Of a stretch of 64,000 nt of DNA, positions 31,540 to 48,593 are shown piece by piece. Position 1 is the stretch's first letter; each line of letters begins with the position of its first letter. Both the position numbers and the translations under genes were made by a program. The notes under the pieces are model-generated. The model ran no database searches and was not told the DNA's origin. It was given only the letters and a program-made list of their open reading frames with translations. The DNA comes from a virus (taxonomy: Duplodnaviria; Heunggongvirae; Uroviricota; Caudoviricetes): the IMG/VR virus record IMGVR_UViG_2513237251_000009; one strand, written 5' to 3'.

Positions 31540-31852
31540 CGAATTTCTCCCGTGTACAGGAACAGAGTTAAAAAGCCGGAACCGGAATCAAATCACAGGA
31601 TGACCATCTGCCAGTGGCTGGTCGTAAAAAAAAGCCGCGCCATGCGCAGCCGGAAATAAAGGGATAACGATGATAGTTTGAGAAAAACAGAAACAACACT
31701 TTTGTGGCAAAGCATGGTGCCGGGTGCCTCCCGGTGAATTCAGTATCAGCACCTGAATCCGCGATTATCCCATATACCTGGTTGCTGATCGCCCCTCCGC
31801 ACAGGGGGATTCACCATGCAGAAGTGTTTTTAATAAACAGCAAACAAAAAAA

Positions 31853-32617: not shown

Positions 32618-32694
32618 TGGCGCGTTGTAGTGGAGTCGAACCACTGACCGATTGCTTAGAAGGCAATTGCTCTGTCCGGCTGAGCTAACAACGC
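32618..32694 (-). tRNA. argO: tRNA-Arg (anticodon TCT)
   Basis: 77 nt, 7-bp acceptor stem GCGTTGT/ACAACGC, anticodon loop CTTCTAA, T-arm GGTTCGACTCC, encoded CCA; terminator hairpin downstream. Confidence 0.85.
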
Positions 32695-32794
32695 AGAATA
32701 CCGATAATGGACCGCCATCGGGGACCCGGCCCCGCACCAACAACCCTGTTATGGTGTCGTCTGCTCTTCCTGATAAGCTAATGGCGGTTTGTGA

Positions 32795-32870
32795 TGGTGG
32801 CCCTTGCTGGATTTGAACCAGCGACCTGGCGATTATGAGTCGCTCGCTCTCACCACTGAGCTAAAGGGCC
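32795..32870 (-). tRNA. ileZ: tRNA with CAT anticodon (Ile2-lysidine type or Met)
   Basis: 76 nt, acceptor GGCCCTT/AAGGGCC, anticodon loop CTCATAA, T-arm GGTTCAAATCC, encoded CCA. Confidence 0.8.
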
Positions 32871-37013: not shown

Positions 37014-37169
37014 TTACTTCTCAGATTCGTAGTCTACGAAGACAGCGACCTCCGTCTGACCGGTTCGGATTCGCACCTCGCAGAGGTCTTTCCTCGTTAC
37101 CAGTGCCGTCACTATGACGGTTAAACAGATGACGATCAGGGCGATTAACATCGCCTTTTGCTGCTTCAT
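37014..37169 (-). CDS. hokD: Hok/Gef-family type I toxin (HokD/RelF-like)
   Basis: 51 aa MKQQKAMLIALIVICLTVIVTALVTRKDLCEVRIRTGQTEVAVF... nearly identical to K-12 HokD as recalled. Confidence 0.85.
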   Translation of the reverse strand: MKQQKAMLIALIVICLTVIVTALVTRKDLCEVRIRTGQTEVAVFVDYESEK

Positions 37170-37459
37170 AGCCTGCTTCTCCTTGCCTTTCGGCACGTAA
37201 GAGGCTAACCTACATGTGTTCAGCATGGATTGAGCCTCAGATTAATGTTAAGCGTCTTGCAGGACGCGTAATGTTAACTGGGGCTTTTCTCTATCTGCCG
37301 TTGGTGTTCATGCCCGAGGCAGATAGCCTCAAGCACCCGCAGCAATTCTACTTAACTATCCTTTTCCCGCAAACCGTTTTTATCCCCAGCGGCAAATCGA
37401 ATACACCACCAGCGCCACCGCCATCGCAATTCCTACCGTTGTGAATGCTTCAGGCCAGG

Positions 37460-41522: not shown

Positions 41523-41948
41523 TCAATGCACGACAACAGCATTACCAGGCTGACCCCCACTGTTAGTCAGGGTGCCCCAGGCGATCGCCGCTGCGACAAA
41601 ATCATCCACATCTTTCACCAGCCGATCCCTCCGTTCGACGATCTCACGGTAATATTCAGAGCTGTGACTGCGCATACGGGCCACCAGCAGAGGCGGCATT
41701 GCCTTTTCGATCGCCGGTAACAGAGCCTGCATTTTTTCAACTGCATCAGGGGTGTCTTTCTCTATCCAGCGGAAAATTTTCTGGGTATTGCGAGCCAGGG
41801 CTTCCGGATGGCTGTCGTCGTACAGTTCAGGAAACGTCATACCCAACTCAAAATAAGCCTGGGTTATTCCAGCTGCCGGAACTTTTTCGCCATCAGGACG
41901 CGCCCAGGCATTCATCGCCATGCGGATGTGTTCATGCTTGATTTTCAT
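41523..41948 (-). CDS. YdaT-like protein (CII-position regulator)
   Basis: 141 aa from ATG 41948 (MKIKHEHI...), SD aagggggg; position between cro and O. Confidence 0.5.
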   Translation of the reverse strand: MKIKHEHIRMAMNAWARPDGEKVPAAGITQAYFELGMTFPELYDDSHPEALARNTQKIFRWIEKDTPDAVEKMQALLPAIEKAMPPLLVARMRSHSSEYYREIVERRDRLVKDVDDFVAAAIAWGTLTNSGGQPGNAVVVH

Positions 41949-42174
41949 GAATCCCCCCTTGGTTAGAAGGCGGATTATGATCAGAATCGGGAATGACAAC
42001 CGTCGGTATGTGTAACTCATATTTGAGCGCCCCGGCAGTGACTGCCTGAATTAGCAACGCCCATTTCCACGGAACGTCTTCCCCCCACATGCTGACTGTG
42101 GTTTTTGACGTTCCTAGAGCGGCGGCTGTTTTAACAACTCCGCCAAAATAGCCTAATACTTCTGATTTTTTCAT
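41932..42174 (-). CDS. cro: Cro-like HTH repressor (YdaS-like)
   Basis: 80 aa from ATG 42174 (SD ggag); HTH; divergent from cI. Confidence 0.6.
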   Translation of the reverse strand: MKKSEVLGYFGGVVKTAAALGTSKTTVSMWGEDVPWKWALLIQAVTAGALKYELHIPTVVIPDSDHNPPSNQGGIHENQA

Positions 42175-42265
42175 GAGTCGCTCCATAAAACTGAACGCCA
42201 AAAGTTTAATAATCAAAACCAAAGAAAGTCAAGAAACAAAACCATCTGTGTTTTAAAATCAAAAC

Positions 42266-42904
42266 ATGAACAAGCAAACAATATCTGAACGCATAACCCA
42301 ACGTATGCATGCGCTAAACTTGAAAGGCAAAGACCTTGTCAATGCCACTGGCGCATCAAAAGGCTCCGTAAGTCAATGGATGAACGGTGGAGGAGCGCCG
42401 TCCTCGCGTTACATAAGTTCACTGGCAAAGATATTGAAAGTAAACGAAAATTGGCTTCTTAATGGAGGAGAGTTAAATACAGGTGATTCGCTTGATCTAT
42501 CTTTACCGCCGATAAAAACGGTTCCGCTACTATCACTTCAGCAGGCAGCAAGCTGGAGTGATTATATGAAAAATTCCTCAATAACCTCTTGTGTGCAGCT
42601 TGTCGGAGAAATCCCGGCCAATACCTTTGCTGTTGTTCTAGAGAGTGACAGTATGTCGACATCTGGTGGTGGAGTTTCCATCCCAAATGGTTCAACAGTT
42701 TTTGTTGATCCCGATCGAATCGTACAACCAGGAAATATTGTCCTTGCCTTACCCAAAGGGACCACAACGCCTGTCATTCGCAAACTGGAGATAGAAGGGC
42801 CGGATATTCTTTTAGTCCCCACGAATCCTCGCTACCCTTCAATTATGCTGGATGATCTATCTTGCATATTGGGAGTATGCTTTAAAATTCAACAAGATAT
42901 TTAA
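42266..42904 (+). CDS. cI: CI-type prophage repressor (HTH plus S24 LexA-like peptidase domain)
   Basis: 212 aa; N-terminal HTH, C-terminal Ser (ESDSM) and Lys (LPKG) of S24 autoprotease fold. Confidence 0.8.
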   Translation: MNKQTISERITQRMHALNLKGKDLVNATGASKGSVSQWMNGGGAPSSRYISSLAKILKVNENWLLNGGELNTGDSLDLSLPPIKTVPLLSLQQAASWSDYMKNSSITSCVQLVGEIPANTFAVVLESDSMSTSGGGVSIPNGSTVFVDPDRIVQPGNIVLALPKGTTTPVIRKLEIEGPDILLVPTNPRYPSIMLDDLSCILGVCFKIQQDI

Positions 42905-43196
42905 CCAACCTCATCTATTTGATTAACTGTATGCCATCGTAGTGATGGCGTAACAGCTGCCTGCTTAAAATGTTTTGATAAAAAAACATTGACCTTAAAT
43001 GTTCGTTTTTCTAAACTTCATTCATTCCCTCACCCCGCCCCACAGAATGCAGGGCAATACTTCGAGTTACCAGGCAGTGGTCAGGGGTTAAGTAGCCAGC
43101 CCGAGGCGTAAGAACATGACGGCAGGGTTCAACTTTAATAACTATGCAGCAGGTTTTTGTTCCGCTACCCCGGCGTTAAGGGGAAATGAGGTCAAC

Positions 43197-43349
43197 ATGG
43201 ATACGCTCAATCTTGGCAACAACGAATCTCTGGTATGTGGCGTGTTCCCCAACCAGGACGGTACGTTCACCGCGATGACGTATACCAAAAGCAAAACGTT
43301 TAAAACTGAAGCTGGCGCGCGTCGCTGGTTAGCCAGAAACACTGACTGA
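43197..43349 (+). CDS. Hypothetical 50-aa protein (possibly YdfA-like)
   Basis: ATG 43197 with SD gagg; MDTLNLGNNESLV...; first gene of cI-adjacent cassette. Confidence 0.4.
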   Translation: MDTLNLGNNESLVCGVFPNQDGTFTAMTYTKSKTFKTEAGARRWLARNTD

Positions 43350-43360
43350 TGAGGTTGACG

Positions 43361-43999
43361 ATGGAATTTAAAGATTTACCTCCTTCAATCCAGGAGATTG
43401 CAGCACACACACTTCGTCATCGTCTGAACGAACTTGAATTGGAATCGGTAACGAAAAAAGACACTGATAATATGGCTCGTAATGTGCGCGATGCGTTTAC
43501 CGGATTGTATTTCTGTGCGTCTATAAATAAACACGACTCAGAGAGTGTGGCAAATAAAATTGCAGAAACGACAGCGCAAAACATCAATACGAAACCAACG
43601 GAAGAAGAAATTGATCAGTTTGCTCATGATGCTGGTTTAAAAAACAAGAAAGAAAAATCGCCATATGCGGGGAACATGTTTGTTTATGACAATCTCATCA
43701 GAATTCGTGGCGAAATTCCGGCGGAATACCTGGCAAGAGTCCATCAGGCATTGCTTAAAAATTTGGAAACAGAATTATTTGATGGCAACACTAACGGTTT
43801 CTTCATGGTATCAGGCCTTGAGAAAGACTGGGATGCAGAAAAACGCTGGAATGTTGCTACATGGTTATTCAGTAACAGAGCCGCTGCACTGGAAGCTTCG
43901 GCATGTATTTGCGGCCTGTTCTTAACAGACCACAAATATAATCTGGATGTGTACAGTTATATTTACGCTGAACACGGTCCACTCTGGATTGACTGGTAA
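43361..43999 (+). CDS. Hypothetical 212-aa protein in the cI-adjacent lysogen-expressed slot
   Basis: ATG 43361 with SD gagg 6 nt upstream; no recognisable motif by eye. Confidence 0.5.
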   Translation: MEFKDLPPSIQEIAAHTLRHRLNELELESVTKKDTDNMARNVRDAFTGLYFCASINKHDSESVANKIAETTAQNINTKPTEEEIDQFAHDAGLKNKKEKSPYAGNMFVYDNLIRIRGEIPAEYLARVHQALLKNLETELFDGNTNGFFMVSGLEKDWDAEKRWNVATWLFSNRAAALEASACICGLFLTDHKYNLDVYSYIYAEHGPLWIDW

Positions 44000-44209
44000 T
44001 TATAAGGAAACACCAGCAGGGCCGCGGCGACCAACAGAACGATTAAAATCAATAATGCCATTATAAAGGACATTATTTAATTTATCGTCGAATGCTGATT
44101 CTGTGAGCCTCAACTCTGAATGAGTTTTTAATAACCCTGATTGCCTGAGTTGATTTACCAGGCATTCAATCTGTTTTTCAATAAGCGGATTTCTTTTTTT
44201 GTTTGGCAT
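44000..44209 (-). CDS. Hypothetical 69-aa protein convergent with the 212-aa gene
   Basis: ATG 44209 preceded by GGAGG; stop codons of the two genes abut (TAATTA). Confidence 0.4.
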   Translation of the reverse strand: MPNKKRNPLIEKQIECLVNQLRQSGLLKTHSELRLTESAFDDKLNNVLYNGIIDFNRSVGRRGPAGVSL

Positions 44210-44546
44210 TTTATCCTCCATTGAGGTTCTGGGTTAAAAATGGAGACCAACACGCTGTCACGTGTGGTCGTGCGCCGGACACGGATAAGAATCCGGTACT
44301 GACAGTTTACTGAAAGGATATTTCCCTGAAAAGTCAGTGCATAACGCGAAAGCGTACGGCGAAGCTCTTTCCCTTAGAAGGCTTGTCGTTAGATTTCTTC
44401 GAACGTGCGCTTCCGGTTGTGGCACTCCGCGAAATGGCGCGGCGGTAAGTATGGCGGGGTTATTCCTTCCCCATTGAGGACACCGGGTTGTCAGGTTGAC
44501 CATACGCTTAAGTGACAACCCCGCTGCAACGCCCTCTGTTATCAAT

Positions 44547-44604
44547 TTTCTGGTGACGTTTGGCGGTATCAGTTTTACTCCGTGGCTGCTCTGCCGCCCT
44601 TTTT
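44547..44604 (+). ncRNA. dicF: DicF small RNA
   Basis: tttctggtgacgtttggcggtatcagttttactccgtggctgctctgccgcccttttt matches K-12 DicF as recalled, one substitution; ends in an intrinsic terminator. Confidence 0.75.
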
Positions 44605-44773
44605 AAAGTGAATTTTGTGATGCGGTGAATGCGGCTAAGCGCACGCGGAACAGTTAAAACCAAAAACAGTGTTATGGGTGGATTCTCTGTATCCGGCGTT
44701 AATTGTTAACTGGTTAACGTCACCTGGAGGCACCAGGCACTGCATCACAAAATTCATTGTTGAGGACGCGATA

Positions 44774-44962
44774 ATGGAAACGTTATTACCAAACGTTAAT
44801 ACGTCTGAAGGTTGTTTTGATATTGGTGTTCTGCTCAGTAACCGGGAGTTTACTGAAGATGCCATTAACATGAGGAAATATGAGCCTTATCTGCTCAATG
44901 ATAATTCCATACTTTCCCGAATTGCTCTTCTTGAACTTGGTATTTTCGGAGAACGTCAATGA
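44774..44962 (+). CDS. dicB: DicB-like cell-division inhibitor
   Basis: 62 aa from ATG 44774 (METLLPNVNTSEGCF...), SD gagga; directly downstream of dicF. Confidence 0.7.
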   Translation: METLLPNVNTSEGCFDIGVLLSNREFTEDAINMRKYEPYLLNDNSILSRIALLELGIFGERQ

Positions 44963-45147
44963 CTTCAGCATTTGCACTGATGATGACGGTTTTTCTTATA
45001 ACGGGTGAATCACAGAATGTGATTACCGGAATTTATGCCAGTAAAGAATCCTGCCTCCAGGCAAGAGACGAGCAAAAAATTTCTGGTGAATGCCTCCCGG
45101 TAAAAAAAGTATCGCTGTACCTGAATAACGAAACACCGGCTGGATAA
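44959..45147 (+). CDS. ydfD: YdfD-like small membrane/lysis protein
   Basis: 62 aa MTSAFALMMTVFLITGE..., resembles K-12 YdfD; 4-nt overlap with dicB. Confidence 0.65.
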   Translation: MTSAFALMMTVFLITGESQNVITGIYASKESCLQARDEQKISGECLPVKKVSLYLNNETPAG

Positions 45148-45239
45148 CCCTCCAGCCATATTAACACCATACCAACGGATTAAAAATGCCAGCAATGGCA
45201 GGGATTTGTTCACCCTTAAATCTGTAATGAGGTTTATCA

Positions 45240-46484
45240 ATGAGCACTGATAAAGAAGAATTTGCGCTATATTGCGAAGCAAAAAATGACAAAGTCAGAA
45301 AACGTCTGGGAATTAAAGGTGGTTTTTACTGGACTACAGCAAAAAAATTATCTGTTGCCATCTCCCGCTGCATTACCGCAATGGATGACAACGATTATGA
45401 TGAAGACGACTTTAAAAAACCCGTTCGCGTCCATTTACCCGTTGTGAATGACCTTCCACCTGAAGGCGTGTTTGATACCGAATTCTGCAACCGATACGAA
45501 AAAGGCGGGGAAGATGGCATTACAATGGTATTTATCGCGCCCTCTCCCTCCGTGCAGGAGAAACCAGCCAGTACTGACAATACCAACGTCAACGGCGAAG
45601 ACATGACGGAGATTGAGGAGAATATGCTCCTGCCGGTTTCTGGTCAGGAGCTGCCCATTCGCTGGCTTGCGCAACACGGCAGCGAAAAACCAGTAACGCA
45701 CGTTGCACGGGAAGAACTTCAGGCATTACATATAGCACGGGCGGAAGAACTGCCGGCTGTTACTGCCTTGGCCATTTCTCACAAAACAAAGCTGCTCGAC
45801 CCGCTGGAGATTCGCGACCTTCACAAACTGGTACGCGACACTGACAAAGTTTTCCCTAATCCCGGTAATTCAGACCTGGGACTGATAACTGCTTTTTTCG
45901 AGGCATACCTGGACGCTGACTACACTGATCGGGGTCTGCTGACAAAAGAGTGGATGAAAGGAAATCGTGTTTCGCGTATCACCCGTACGGCTTCCGGTGC
46001 AAATGCCGGTGGCGGGAACAAAACCGATCGCAATCCGAATTTAGTACACACCTTCGATACGCTGGATGTGGAGATTGCAGCAGCCACACTTCCGATGGAT
46101 TTTAATATTTATGAAATTCCGGGCAGCGTTTATCGTCGCGCAAAAGAAATCGTCCTGAAAAGAGAAAGTCCGTTCAAAGAATGGTCCGCAGCACTTCGCG
46201 CAACCCCGGGTATTCTGGACTATTCCCGCGCCGCTATTTTTGCACTTATCCGGAGCGCTCACCCTGAGTTTTATCACTACCCGGGACGCCTTCAGGGGTA
46301 TATCAACGCCTACTTAACGGAGACTGATCACGAGAACCCCAGCAAGGAAACTCTCACTGCTGCACGACATACACCGGAAAAAGATATCCTGGAAGAAGTT
46401 AACCGCGAACTGTCTGCTAAGCAGGAAACAGAAGAAGAAAATGATGAAGAAAAACCGCAACCATCTTGCGCAATGGCAGAATGA
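45240..46484 (+). CDS. Hypothetical 414-aa protein (YdfE-like position)
   Basis: Large ORF between ydfD and integrase fragment; acidic C-terminal tail; unknown function. Confidence 0.45.
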   Translation: MSTDKEEFALYCEAKNDKVRKRLGIKGGFYWTTAKKLSVAISRCITAMDDNDYDEDDFKKPVRVHLPVVNDLPPEGVFDTEFCNRYEKGGEDGITMVFIAPSPSVQEKPASTDNTNVNGEDMTEIEENMLLPVSGQELPIRWLAQHGSEKPVTHVAREELQALHIARAEELPAVTALAISHKTKLLDPLEIRDLHKLVRDTDKVFPNPGNSDLGLITAFFEAYLDADYTDRGLLTKEWMKGNRVSRITRTASGANAGGGNKTDRNPNLVHTFDTLDVEIAAATLPMDFNIYEIPGSVYRRAKEIVLKRESPFKEWSAALRATPGILDYSRAAIFALIRSAHPEFYHYPGRLQGYINAYLTETDHENPSKETLTAARHTPEKDILEEVNRELSAKQETEEENDEEKPQPSCAMAE

Positions 46485-47017
46485 TAATCAGAAGAAATCT
46501 GGCAAAAGACCGTTTTACAGTACCAAAAACACAGGCGGGAACCAATCGTGTGATTCACCTTATTAAGCCCGCAATCGACGCTCTCCGGAGTCAGATGGCA
46601 CTAACGAGACTGAGCAAAGAGCATATCATCGATGTTCACCTCAGAGAATTCGGCAGAACAGAGAAACAAAAATGTACCTTTGTTTTTCAACCTGAAGTGT
46701 CAGCGAAAGTAAAAAATTATGGCGACCATTTTACCGTTGACTCAATAAGGCAGATGTGGGACGCAGCGGTAAAGCGTGCCGGAATCCGCCATCGCAAATC
46801 GTATCAGTCGAGACACACTTATGCCTGCTGGTCGTTAACAGCAGGAGCTAACCCGGCATTCATTGCAAACCAGATGGGCCATGCAGATGCGCAAATGGTG
46901 TTTCAGGTGTACGGGAAATGGATGTCAGAAAATAATAATGCGCAGGTAACGCTGTTAAATACACAGTTAAGCGAGTTTGCCCCAACCATGCCCCATAACG
47001 AAGCGATGAAAAGTTAA
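46466..47017 (+). pseudogene. int: Tyrosine integrase, C-terminal catalytic fragment only
   Basis: 183 aa with catalytic-domain pattern (RHTYACW...HADAQMVFQVYGKW); N-terminal about 200 aa absent, overlapped by upstream ORF. Confidence 0.65.
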
Positions 47018-47379: not shown

Positions 47380-48270
47380 TCAGGCTGCCAGATCATCGTT
47401 TCCGATGGAAGCATAATAAGCTTTTTCTGCTTCTGCCGGAGGAGTATGGCCCAGCCTTCCCAGCAATCGTCGATTGTTATACCAGTCCACCCACGTTAGT
47501 GTGGCCAGTTCCACTTCTGCACGGTTTTTCCAGCTCTTACGGTGTATTACCTCCGCTTTGTAAAGACCATTGATGCTCTCAGCCATCGCGTTGTCATACG
47601 AGTCGCCTGTACTCCCTGTTGATGCCAGTAATCCGGCTTCTTTTAGTCGCTCCGTATAGGCCAGTGACACATACTGAGAGCCTTTATCGCTGTGATGGAT
47701 GGTGCCAGACGGACGACGGGCCCACAACGCCTGCTCCAGCGCATCCAGCACGAATGTCGTTTCCATAGACGATGAGACCCGCCACCCCACGATGTATCCG
47801 GCAAACACATCAATGATAAACGCCACATAGACGAAGCCCTGCCATGTGCTGACGTAAGTAAAATCAGCCACCCACAGCTGGTCAGGTCGTTCTGCCACGA
47901 ACTGACGGTTTACGCGGTCGCCTGCGGCAACGGCTTTCCGGCTGATGGTCGTACGGACCTTTTTACCCCGGAGAACACCGGCAAGTCCCATAACCGCCAT
48001 GAGACGTGCCACTGTACATCTGGCCACCCTGATTCCTTCCCGTAACAACTGACGCCAGACTTTACGCACACCGTACACCTGATGATTTTCATCGTATACG
48101 CGCTGTATCTCTCTCTTCAGCCAGTCGTCGTGCTGCGCACGGGCACTGCGTTTATCCGGATGATGTCGCTGTTGCTGACAATGGTAATACGTTGACGGGG
48201 CAATATGCAGTTCGCTGCATACCGGTCCGACCCCGTACTGCTCACGCAGCTTATCCAGCAGTGGCATCAT
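47380..48270 (-). CDS. IS629 transposase OrfB (DDE integrase domain)
   Basis: 296-aa IS3-family orfB. Confidence 0.85.
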
Positions 48271-48593
48271 TTTTTCCAGAGGCGGTCGAACTCCGCCTTC
48301 GCAAAATAAGCGGAAGCCTGGCGAAGGATATCGTTACTGCGGCGCAGTTCACGATTTTCACGTTCCAGCTCTTTCAGACGCTGACGTTCAGCGCTGGTGA
48401 GCCCACCATCACCGCCCCCGGTATCCCGCTCATGCTGGCGAACCCAGACACGCAGAGTCTCCGGCGTACAGCCAATCTTTGGGGCAATGGAACAAATTGC
48501 CGCCCACTGTGAGTCATATTCATCCTGACTTTCCAGAACCATACGAATCGCCCGCTGACGGACTTCGGGGGAAAAACGAGTATTTTTAGTCAT
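48267..48593 (-). CDS. IS629 OrfA (HTH)
   Basis: 108-aa IS3-family orfA, overlaps orfB. Confidence 0.85.

Follow-up and report, generated by a model that had tools for sequence, protein, structure and literature searches.

Are the genes that follow the repressor gene of this prophage expressed together with the repressor in lysogens, or do they belong to the early operon that the repressor keeps silent? The question concerns IMG/VR virus record IMGVR_UViG_2513237251_000009, a stretch of 64,000 nucleotides (nt), called the window here, in which a CI-type repressor gene is followed by two co-oriented open reading frames (ORFs) of 50 and 212 amino acids (aa) and by a convergent ORF of 69 aa. The 212-aa protein is called L and the 69-aa protein S. 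A first-pass annotation had assigned these genes to a rexAB-equivalent slot next to cI, as an uncharacterised cassette expressed in lysogens from a promoter at 42989. In lambda, rexAB lies between cI and O_L/P_L and is co-transcribed with cI. The region under study is the immunity region of a defective lambdoid prophage of the Qin/Rac type from enterohaemorrhagic Escherichia coli (EHEC), and positions 42100-45200 of the window are 100 % identical to chromosomes of E. coli O157:H7, O121 and related EHEC strains. The reading that we favour, with a probability of about 0.55, is that of a CI-repressed early-left operon carrying an exchangeable L/S pair, a putative effector and its antisense-encoded partner.

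Operators and the early-left promoter

The ORFs, their Shine-Dalgarno (SD) sites, the promoter hexamers and the abutting stop codons all proved to be where the first-pass annotation had placed them. The palindrome TGTTTT-N6-AAAACA occurs exactly twice in the 64 kb, once in the cI/cro intergenic region (O_R, 42249-42266) and once at 42971-42988 (O_L), where it abuts the -35 hexamer of the 42989 promoter. This promoter and the candidate P_R of cro have the -10 hexamer TAAACT in common, and each has a weaker operator-like site over its -10 (Table 1). In a promoter scan TTGACC-17-TAAACT gave 9/12 consensus matches. Hexamers alone prove nothing, since consensus promoter matches are no commoner in the region than in shuffles (5 found, 6.0 expected). 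The 42989 promoter is credible through its operator context and its homology to Qin.

The 50-aa ORF is an orthologue of ydfA, the first gene of the dicBF operon in the Qin prophage of K-12. The best O_R-like 18-mer was sought in the repressor-to-ydfA interval of eight loci with unrelated repressors (the window, K-12 Qin, phage Tritos, L010, L013, L015, L024 and L025), with 300 shuffles per locus. It lies 196-230 nt upstream of the ydfA ATG in all of them save Qin, where the leader is shorter (98 nt). The 18-mer is specific in sequence to the immunity type, and in L024 18/18 bases are identical. Between 0 and 4 of the 300 shuffles per locus reached the operator match (4/300 for the window), Qin excepted (32/300). 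In Tritos another cI and another promoter/operator block stand at the same place and are followed by the same leader. On this comparison of sequences it is strongly indicated that 42971-43017 behaves as an immunity-specific O_L/P_L.

The Qin operon (dicA, then dicBp-ydfA-ydfB-ydfC-dicF-dicB-ydfD) has the same gene order, strand and operator-bearing promoter downstream of the repressor gene, and the region before dicF is conserved. In experiments the CI-like DicA repressed Qin dicBp, the promoter ahead of ydfA, 22-fold, and dicBp is repressed in lysogens. It gives rise to a single polycistronic ydfABC-dicF-dicB-ydfD(E) transcript, and DicF is released by processing of this RNA (PMC10448788). 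The promoter has been explicitly equated with lambda P_L (PMC10448788, PMC6832061). The window differs from Qin in a leader that is longer by ~130 nt and in a repressor with an S24 autocleavage domain, which DicA lacks. Qin dicBp is not SOS-inducible (PMC10448788); because of the autocleavage domain, the window copy should be.

Since the promoter bears an operator and the repressor is of the S24 type, ydfA and L are expected to be silent in a stable lysogen and to be switched on upon CI cleavage or infection. Expression in lysogens from 42989, as first proposed, is not supported: the promoter carries the repressor operator and matches Qin dicBp, which is repressed in lysogens. Downstream of this operator-matched, co-oriented promoter ydfA comes first, followed on the same strand by dicF, dicB, ydfD and recombination genes, as in a P_L/dicBp-type operon. 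Gene order and operator sequences together make it very probable that ydfA, L and the early-left genes belong to one CI-repressed operon of the P_L/dicBF type.

The true rexAB-type slot has no gene in it here and measures only 66 nt between the cI stop and O_L. Relatives have filled it with PaaA2-ParE, co-oriented with the repressor (L013, L014; 3942-4413), or with HigB-HigA on the opposite strand to the repressor (L025; 2007-2671). Like lambda rexA-rexB, ydfA and L are accessory genes that adjoin cI and are co-oriented with it. Unlike rexA-rexB, which would call for a place in the cI-O_L/P_L interval within the P_RM unit, these genes are found downstream of O_L/P_L, and they have no sequence similarity to RexA/RexB. 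By gene order the 50-aa and 212-aa genes occupy the lambda N position, as the first genes after P_L, and not the rexAB position to which they had been assigned.

The leader ahead of ydfA is conserved across immunity types. In a check for an antiterminator RNA of the HK022 put type its predicted fold scored no better than shuffles (z=+0.49) and Rfam gave no match, with no put sequence entering the comparison. The 50-aa protein is 88 % identical to K-12 YdfA and 84 % to Rac YdaF, and its gene has an SD, GAGG (43188-43191), 5 nt before the ATG. A 77-aa ORF (43116-43349) extends ydfA upstream, and this longer form is annotated in some phage records, for example that of Tritos. Because homology to K-12 ydfA starts ~35 nt before the ATG at 43197, which has an SD, the 50-aa form is the likely product. 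The description of the cassette as uncharacterised stands for the 212-aa and 69-aa proteins; the 50-aa protein is a YdfA orthologue of the DUF1391 family.

The L/S pair as an exchangeable cassette

L and S stand in place of Qin ydfB/ydfC and have no counterpart in Qin or Rac; no homology of L and S to YdfB/YdfC was found. Their stop codons abut (TAA 43997-43999, TTA 44000-44002). L is preceded by GAGG (43351-43354) 6 nt before its ATG, and an in-frame ATG at 43349 overlaps the ydfA stop as TGATG. S has the SD GGAGGA 4 nt before its ATG and the conserved motifs SGLLK and RRGPAGxxL-COOH. The ratio of nonsynonymous to synonymous substitution rates (dN/dS) is 0.15-0.26 for S, with changes mainly at third codon positions, and 0.14-0.22 for the C-domain of L, which indicates purifying selection. 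All three ORFs, judged by these sequence comparisons, are real genes.

L is built of modules: an N-terminal helical hairpin (residues 1-55), a disordered linker (56-100) and an alpha/beta C-domain (101-200). The N-module (MEFKDLP..IQEIAA..DNMxRNVRDAFTGLY, ~residues 1-55) forms the start of small proteins in more than 30 families, whose tails are unrelated. The C-domain recurs at ~30 % identity behind a wholly different N-terminus in two Salmonella/Escherichia proteins, P0151 (220 aa) and P0141 (286 aa, with an inserted helix-turn-helix (HTH) of the Cro/C1 type). The genes for these proteins lie directly after cox in prophages with a P2-like int-C/Cox switch. There too a small convergent gene is present, which overlaps the 3' end by 53 or 11 nt and encodes a homologue of S (52 % and 46 %) with SGLLK and RRGxPAGxxL-COOH in common. 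In Salmonella and P2-like-switch prophages the homologous large gene stands just after cro or cox, in an operon divergent from the repressor.

Co-inheritance of the two genes was followed in 5,426 complete E. coli genomes. The counts are nearly equal for S (743 places, 596 genomes) and the L C-domain (738 places, 591 genomes), so that co-inheritance is almost one to one; the whole cassette (>=80 % coverage) is found in 567/5,426 genomes, often in several prophages per genome. The L/S pair stands behind at least five repressor types. The inducible phages Tritos and vB_EcoS-640R1 have the dicBF backbone in common with the window, with ydfC in place of the L/S cassette.

Other tails come with other partners. 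P0124 (179 aa) is paired with an 80-aa protein carrying CxxC..CxxH (phrog_10133; L021-L023), P0150 (201 aa) with a 63-aa protein (phrog_2605; L024), P0131 (129 aa) with a protein of 99-105 aa (L025, L026), and a 119-aa Salmonella paralogue with a 64-aa protein (phrog_4987; L006/L007), the last in tandem with an L/S pair. These alternative convergent small ORFs are mutually unrelated, and all lie between the same flanks. The right flank common to the cassette types comprises two hairpins, the SD GGAGGA and even the first codons of the small gene (MPNKP..., MEDK-M...); homology to Qin resumes at ~44262-44270. Because the N-domain and the right flank are constant, the exchangeable block consists of the C-terminal part of the large gene plus the convergent small gene. 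The pattern would suit a polymorphic effector with a cognate partner, with a constant N-region, five tail/partner combinations, and in addition a C-domain found behind a different N-terminus.

In Salmonella L006/L007 (5001-6500) a 200-aa L homologue and a 69-aa S homologue are followed by the 119-aa paralogue and the 64-aa gene. Further downstream are repeated units of isrK and C4 antisense RNA (P1/P7 ant-type immunity). The N-domain profile also matched P0154 (5212 aa) through residues 17-71 in 9 separate stretches (E=5.8e-8); either the N-domain hairpin resembles a repeat unit of some large repeat protein, or the match reflects low-complexity helical sequence. Truncated N-domain ORFs are many.

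Neither L nor S, by accession or by the name ybl81, is mentioned in the literature searched, and within that literature the L/S cassette is an undescribed exchangeable convergent pair. In a prophage early operon, an architecture that is both polymorphic and convergent is unusual. From the way the two genes are inherited and exchanged, L and S probably form a functional unit.

As the first-pass annotation had said of the 212-aa protein, L has no catalytic or nucleotide-binding motif, and it matched nothing in Pfam, NCBIfam, PADLOC or the Protein Data Bank (PDB). S likewise has no such motif and no match in Pfam, NCBIfam or PADLOC. Against the sequences of solved structures in the PDB nothing significant was found for either protein, the best match being a nucleoid occlusion protein (E=0.11). 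The proposed PADLOC check gave only an insignificant AbiEi match for the 50-aa protein (E=0.047). No membrane segment was found in the 50-aa, 212-aa or 69-aa protein. An exhaustive profile search with L retrieved 48 cluster representatives from 1.84 billion proteins, none of them annotated, and a profile of the C-domain alone added only Salmonella hypothetical proteins. Of the profile and structure searches that the first pass had called for, those against family databases returned DUF1391 for the 50-aa protein and, for L and S, families of the PHROG database with no assigned function; fold searches with L returned weak Prp/YsxB-like matches.

Two AlphaFold models of L were made, with predicted local distance difference test (pLDDT) values of 60.8 and 65.5. 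In the model from the more diverse alignment the C-domain reaches pLDDT 70-89 with the topology bb-a-bb-a-b, and residues 54-101 form a disordered linker. The best Foldseek matches of the C-domain are Prp/TM1457 and phage proteins named 'cysteine protease' or 'YsxB-like'; they are weak, with a template modelling score of ~0.4 and E values of 5e-3 in the PDB and 4e-4 in BFVD. A Prp/YsxB (DUF464) cysteine protease was rejected for L, since the columns that stay invariant across the two C-domain subfamilies include neither His nor Cys.

Possible roles of L and S and competing explanations

In the favoured reading the operon would run from O_L/P_L (42971-43017) through the 180-nt leader, ydfA, L, DicF, dicB and the ydfD-like gene to the truncated recE. 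It is strongly indicated that L is made only once CI has been inactivated or on infection. As the two stop codons leave no space between them for a terminator, the L and S messenger RNAs (mRNAs) must overlap 3' to 3', and because of this overlap P_L transcription and S expression are mutually antagonistic. Transcription from P_L can arrive at dicF and dicB only if RNA polymerase traverses S in antisense. S would be transcribed independently and opposed by P_L activity. L may be an accessory effector of the early phase that works through its C-domain, with S as a cognate partner or antagonist produced while P_L is off. This effector/antagonist logic for the putative partnership is drawn by analogy with pore-forming colicins and their immunity genes, or with P22 sieB and its antisense control, and we put it forward tentatively, as a guess that may well fail.

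In pore-forming colicins the effector gene is SOS-induced and the immunity gene, on the opposite strand, is constitutively expressed. Polymorphic toxin/immunity loci such as CdiA-CT/CdiI and Rhs combine a constant N-part with exchangeable C-parts, each with its own small partner gene. L resembles these systems in its constant N-part and exchangeable C-part, each with a small partner gene, and differs from them in lacking homology, a domain for secretion or translocation, and a lysis gene; the L/S proteins are also much smaller. The pair does not fit a type II toxin-antitoxin module of two co-directional, co-transcribed genes, L and S being convergent and without a match to any toxin-antitoxin family in Pfam/PADLOC. 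Extended to the whole set of tails, the analogy would make the cassettes a family of polymorphic effector/partner modules in enterobacterial prophage early operons. The short helical domain at the N-terminus, constant throughout, would serve to deliver or dock exchangeable C-terminal 'warheads' made at lytic onset, and against each of them lysogens would make a small neutralising protein from the opposite strand. We regard this extension as a long shot.

The conserved right flank is the 5' leader of S. Its first hairpin (GCCGGA..TCCGGC) is invariant and also found in Qin and P2-like contexts; the second varies in sequence among cassette types with its pairing retained. The element CUCCAU is complementary to the S SD in 12/12 sequences (6 bp, one compensatory pair), while loop sequence and length vary, and two sequences pair as CUCCU:AGGAG instead. 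RNAalifold gave 19 pairs for the leader, of which 4 show compensatory changes. When the window sequence is folded by itself, its minimum-free-energy structure does not contain the SD stem. A stem that sequesters the SD is thus modelled tentatively. The flank could control the translation of S, or the P_L transcript could be processed there; being inverted repeats, the elements might just as well function in RNA of the P_L sense, for instance in processing ahead of dicF. Qin, where a small gene is lacking, carries the hairpins and the anti-SD element ahead of dicF as well, and flank elements were seen in other loci (L004 3560-3660, L017, L020 and L024).

Several observations weigh against the favoured reading. 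Within 260 nt upstream of S no convincing or conserved sigma-70 promoter was found, and the only match overlaps the ATG; given this, expression of S in lysogens is an assumption. S appears to be frameshifted in two Salmonella loci with L intact, and is therefore dispensable at some L-bearing loci. The model of L is of moderate quality overall (pLDDT 65.5) and yields no functional analogue. Some short N-domain proteins, such as P0142, are encoded by a large ORF that runs ~165 nt into the antisense of the partner gene, so that part of such a tail may be no genuine domain. Between the cI stop and O_L no canonical intrinsic terminator was seen (a hairpin at ~42927-42956 has no U-tract behind it), and some weak P_RM read-through into ydfA and L in lysogens is therefore possible.

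S, antisense to the early operon like sieB, is the only remaining candidate for lysogen expression. S alone might be a moron for lysogenic conversion or exclusion, in the sieB position and with its own regulation, next to an unrelated early protein L for host takeover or anti-defence. L and S would travel together merely through adjacency in one recombination cassette. In P22 the superinfection exclusion gene sieB lies within the P_L operon, is under the control of an antisense RNA, sas, and is expressed in opposition to P_L transcription (PMC12197685). A place antisense to the lytic genes of a prophage is typical of accessory loci and of morons (PMC7067206). The sieB genes of P22, lambda and Rac are encoded antisense in the P_L operon as S is, a positional analogy only, and Rac sieB converges on and overlaps the DUF1391 gene ydaF, the same relative position. 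A strong conserved SD, a conserved structured leader and the loci with a frameshifted S beside an intact L also suit a moron.

Mere adjacency, on the other hand, should have been broken in mosaic genomes, and the pair has stayed convergent and overlapping at 30 % and 46-52 % identity, with a different N-terminus and switch type. Every alternative tail has its own alternative partner, whereas SieB has no co-inherited convergent partner domain. Nor does S resemble SieB, a 162-aa membrane protein (maximum Kyte-Doolittle (KD) value 2.19): S is soluble (0.22), has 69 aa and no similarity in sequence. S as a member of this membrane family of ~160-190 aa was rejected for its size and the absence of a hydrophobic segment and of a Pfam match, and a common expression platform of Rac sieB and S was rejected because the upstream regions are unrelated. 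We consider it unlikely that S acts alone.

A lower probability is given to a module like rexAB, in which ydfA, L and possibly S would serve exclusion or abortive infection in lysogens, expressed constitutively from 42989 or by P_RM read-through. The operator palindrome abutting the -35 and the second operator-like site over the -10 argue against it, as do the immunity-specific operators that hold their position in 8 immunity types and the strong repression of the Qin promoter by a CI homologue. Also contrary to it are the homologous large gene in a lytic operon divergent from the repressor in other prophages, the separate cI-proximal slot with toxin-antitoxin modules in relatives, and the lack of PADLOC matches. 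In its favour the genes adjoin cI and are co-oriented with it, with no canonical terminator between cI and the promoter. Transient induction of the Qin operon protects against lambda via DicB (PMC6832061), and dicBp fires spontaneously in a subpopulation (PMC10448788). On balance a rexAB-like module is improbable.

Still less probable is a mainly cis-acting convergent unit, in which S transcription and the flank hairpins would brake or process P_L transcription towards dicF/dicB, the proteins being secondary. The flank hairpins are conserved with compensatory changes, also upstream of dicF in Qin. Maturation of DicF requires processing of a long transcript by RNase III and RNase E (PMC10448788), and dicBF expression is toxic (PMC5069750). 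Both ORFs, however, are clearly under purifying selection at the protein level, and the cassette also occurs in Salmonella and P2-like-switch prophages without DicF or DicB downstream. That the ORFs are decaying, functionless remnants is hardly credible, for although recE is truncated and the integrase fragmented at this defective end of the prophage, and truncated N-domain ORFs are numerous, dN/dS is 0.14-0.26 for S and the L C-domain, intact copies are found in ~590/5,426 genomes, often in multiple prophages per genome, and the genes occur in phage genomes as well (PHROG families).

Surroundings and implications

Table 1. Features of the immunity region and early-left operon, with positions in the window.
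Feature	Position	Strand	Remarks
P22-Cro-like gene	41932-42174	minus	
P_R candidate for cro	42203..42232	minus	TTGACT-18-TAAACT; TTGACT at 42232, TAAACT at 42203
Weaker operator-like site	42203-42220		overlaps P_R -10
O_R operator palindrome	42249..42266		TGTTTTAAAATCAAAACA; ends at cI ATG; exact TGTTTT-N6-AAAACA match
CI-type repressor gene, 212 aa	42266-42904	+	N-terminal HTH and C-terminal S24 autopeptidase (Peptidase_S24); SOS-cleavable type
cI stop-to-O_L interval	42905..42970	+	true rexAB-type slot; 66 nt, empty
O_L operator palindrome	42971..42988		TGTTTTGATAAAAAAACA; abuts -35 at 42989; exact TGTTTT-N6-AAAACA match
P_L/dicBp-equivalent promoter	42989..43017	+	TTGACC-17-TAAACT
Second, weaker operator-like site	~42998-43017		inverted repeat; covers P_L spacer and -10
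Untranslated leader, ~180 nt	43018..43196	+	conserved across immunity types
ydfA orthologue, 50 aa	43197..43349	+	DUF1391, E=3.6e-30
L gene, 212 aa	43361..43999	+	phrog_2151 (function-unknown family)
S gene, 69 aa	44000..44209	minus	phrog_4274 (function-unknown family); soluble, basic
Conserved right flank, S 5' leader	44210..44300	minus	hairpins and anti-SD CTCCAT
DicF small RNA	44548-44599	+	Rfam RF00039, 75 bits, E=1e-14
dicB, cell-division inhibitor	44774-44962	+	E=6.4e-37; 63 % identity to K-12 DicB
ydfD-like gene	44959-45147	+	DUF1482; 45 % identity to Qin YdfD
RecE-like exonuclease VIII gene, truncated	45240-46484	+	annotated pseudogene; end of early-left operon
Other RNA features (positions given together)	37164-37338, 31676-31848, 32621-32870, 48196-48312		sok, STnc100, two transfer RNA genes, ALIL

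Besides the Cro-like gene, the minus strand carries a YdaT/CII-like gene and replication genes. RefSeq/PGAP calls the repressor only as a 112-aa 'LexA family protein' (S24 domain, 42566-42904), and the full 212-aa repressor ORF with its N-terminal HTH is intact. The cI ATG (42266) lies 7 nt after TAAAAT (42254-42259), directly behind the O_R palindrome, which suggests a leaderless cI mRNA by analogy with lambda. The left end of the prophage (45240-47017) is degraded, with a truncated recE, a fragmented and frameshifted integrase and then IS256 and IS66 elements. The prophage is probably unable to excise, though the SOS-type repressor is intact and the early operon retained. Other RNAs in the window are the sok antitoxin RNA beside a hok/gef gene, the small RNA STnc100, two transfer RNA genes in the prophage late region and an ALIL frameshift pseudoknot, the last within an insertion sequence right of the prophage.

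Part of the region was matched in 4,758/5,426 E. coli genomes, and a dicBF-type operon is present in most E. coli genomes, often in multiple copies. DicF content differs among these copies. L010 and L024 carry dicB and the cassette, yet neither has a DicF match at the Rfam gathering score. In L010 a deletion lies where the 5' part of dicF is expected, and other loci have diverged DicF-like sequence.

Through DicF and DicB the dicBF-type operon affects cell division, metabolism, virulence regulation and phage resistance. The analysis separates the lysogen-expressed cI slot, the repressed early operon and, within that operon, the exchangeable convergent pair. It guides cloning, with L under induction, S in a lysogen, and both as cognate and non-cognate pairs. 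If the pair is not an effector with its neutraliser, the region is an ordinary mosaic of accessory early genes. If it is, the pair would add to EHEC prophages a novel type of module for conflict between phages. Polymorphic modules of this kind would amount to a colicin/immunity-like system for competition between related prophages, or would protect the lysogen against a leaky or incoming effector, and would represent a class of conflict system new among those that phages encode, carried by ~10 % of E. coli genomes, O157:H7 among them.

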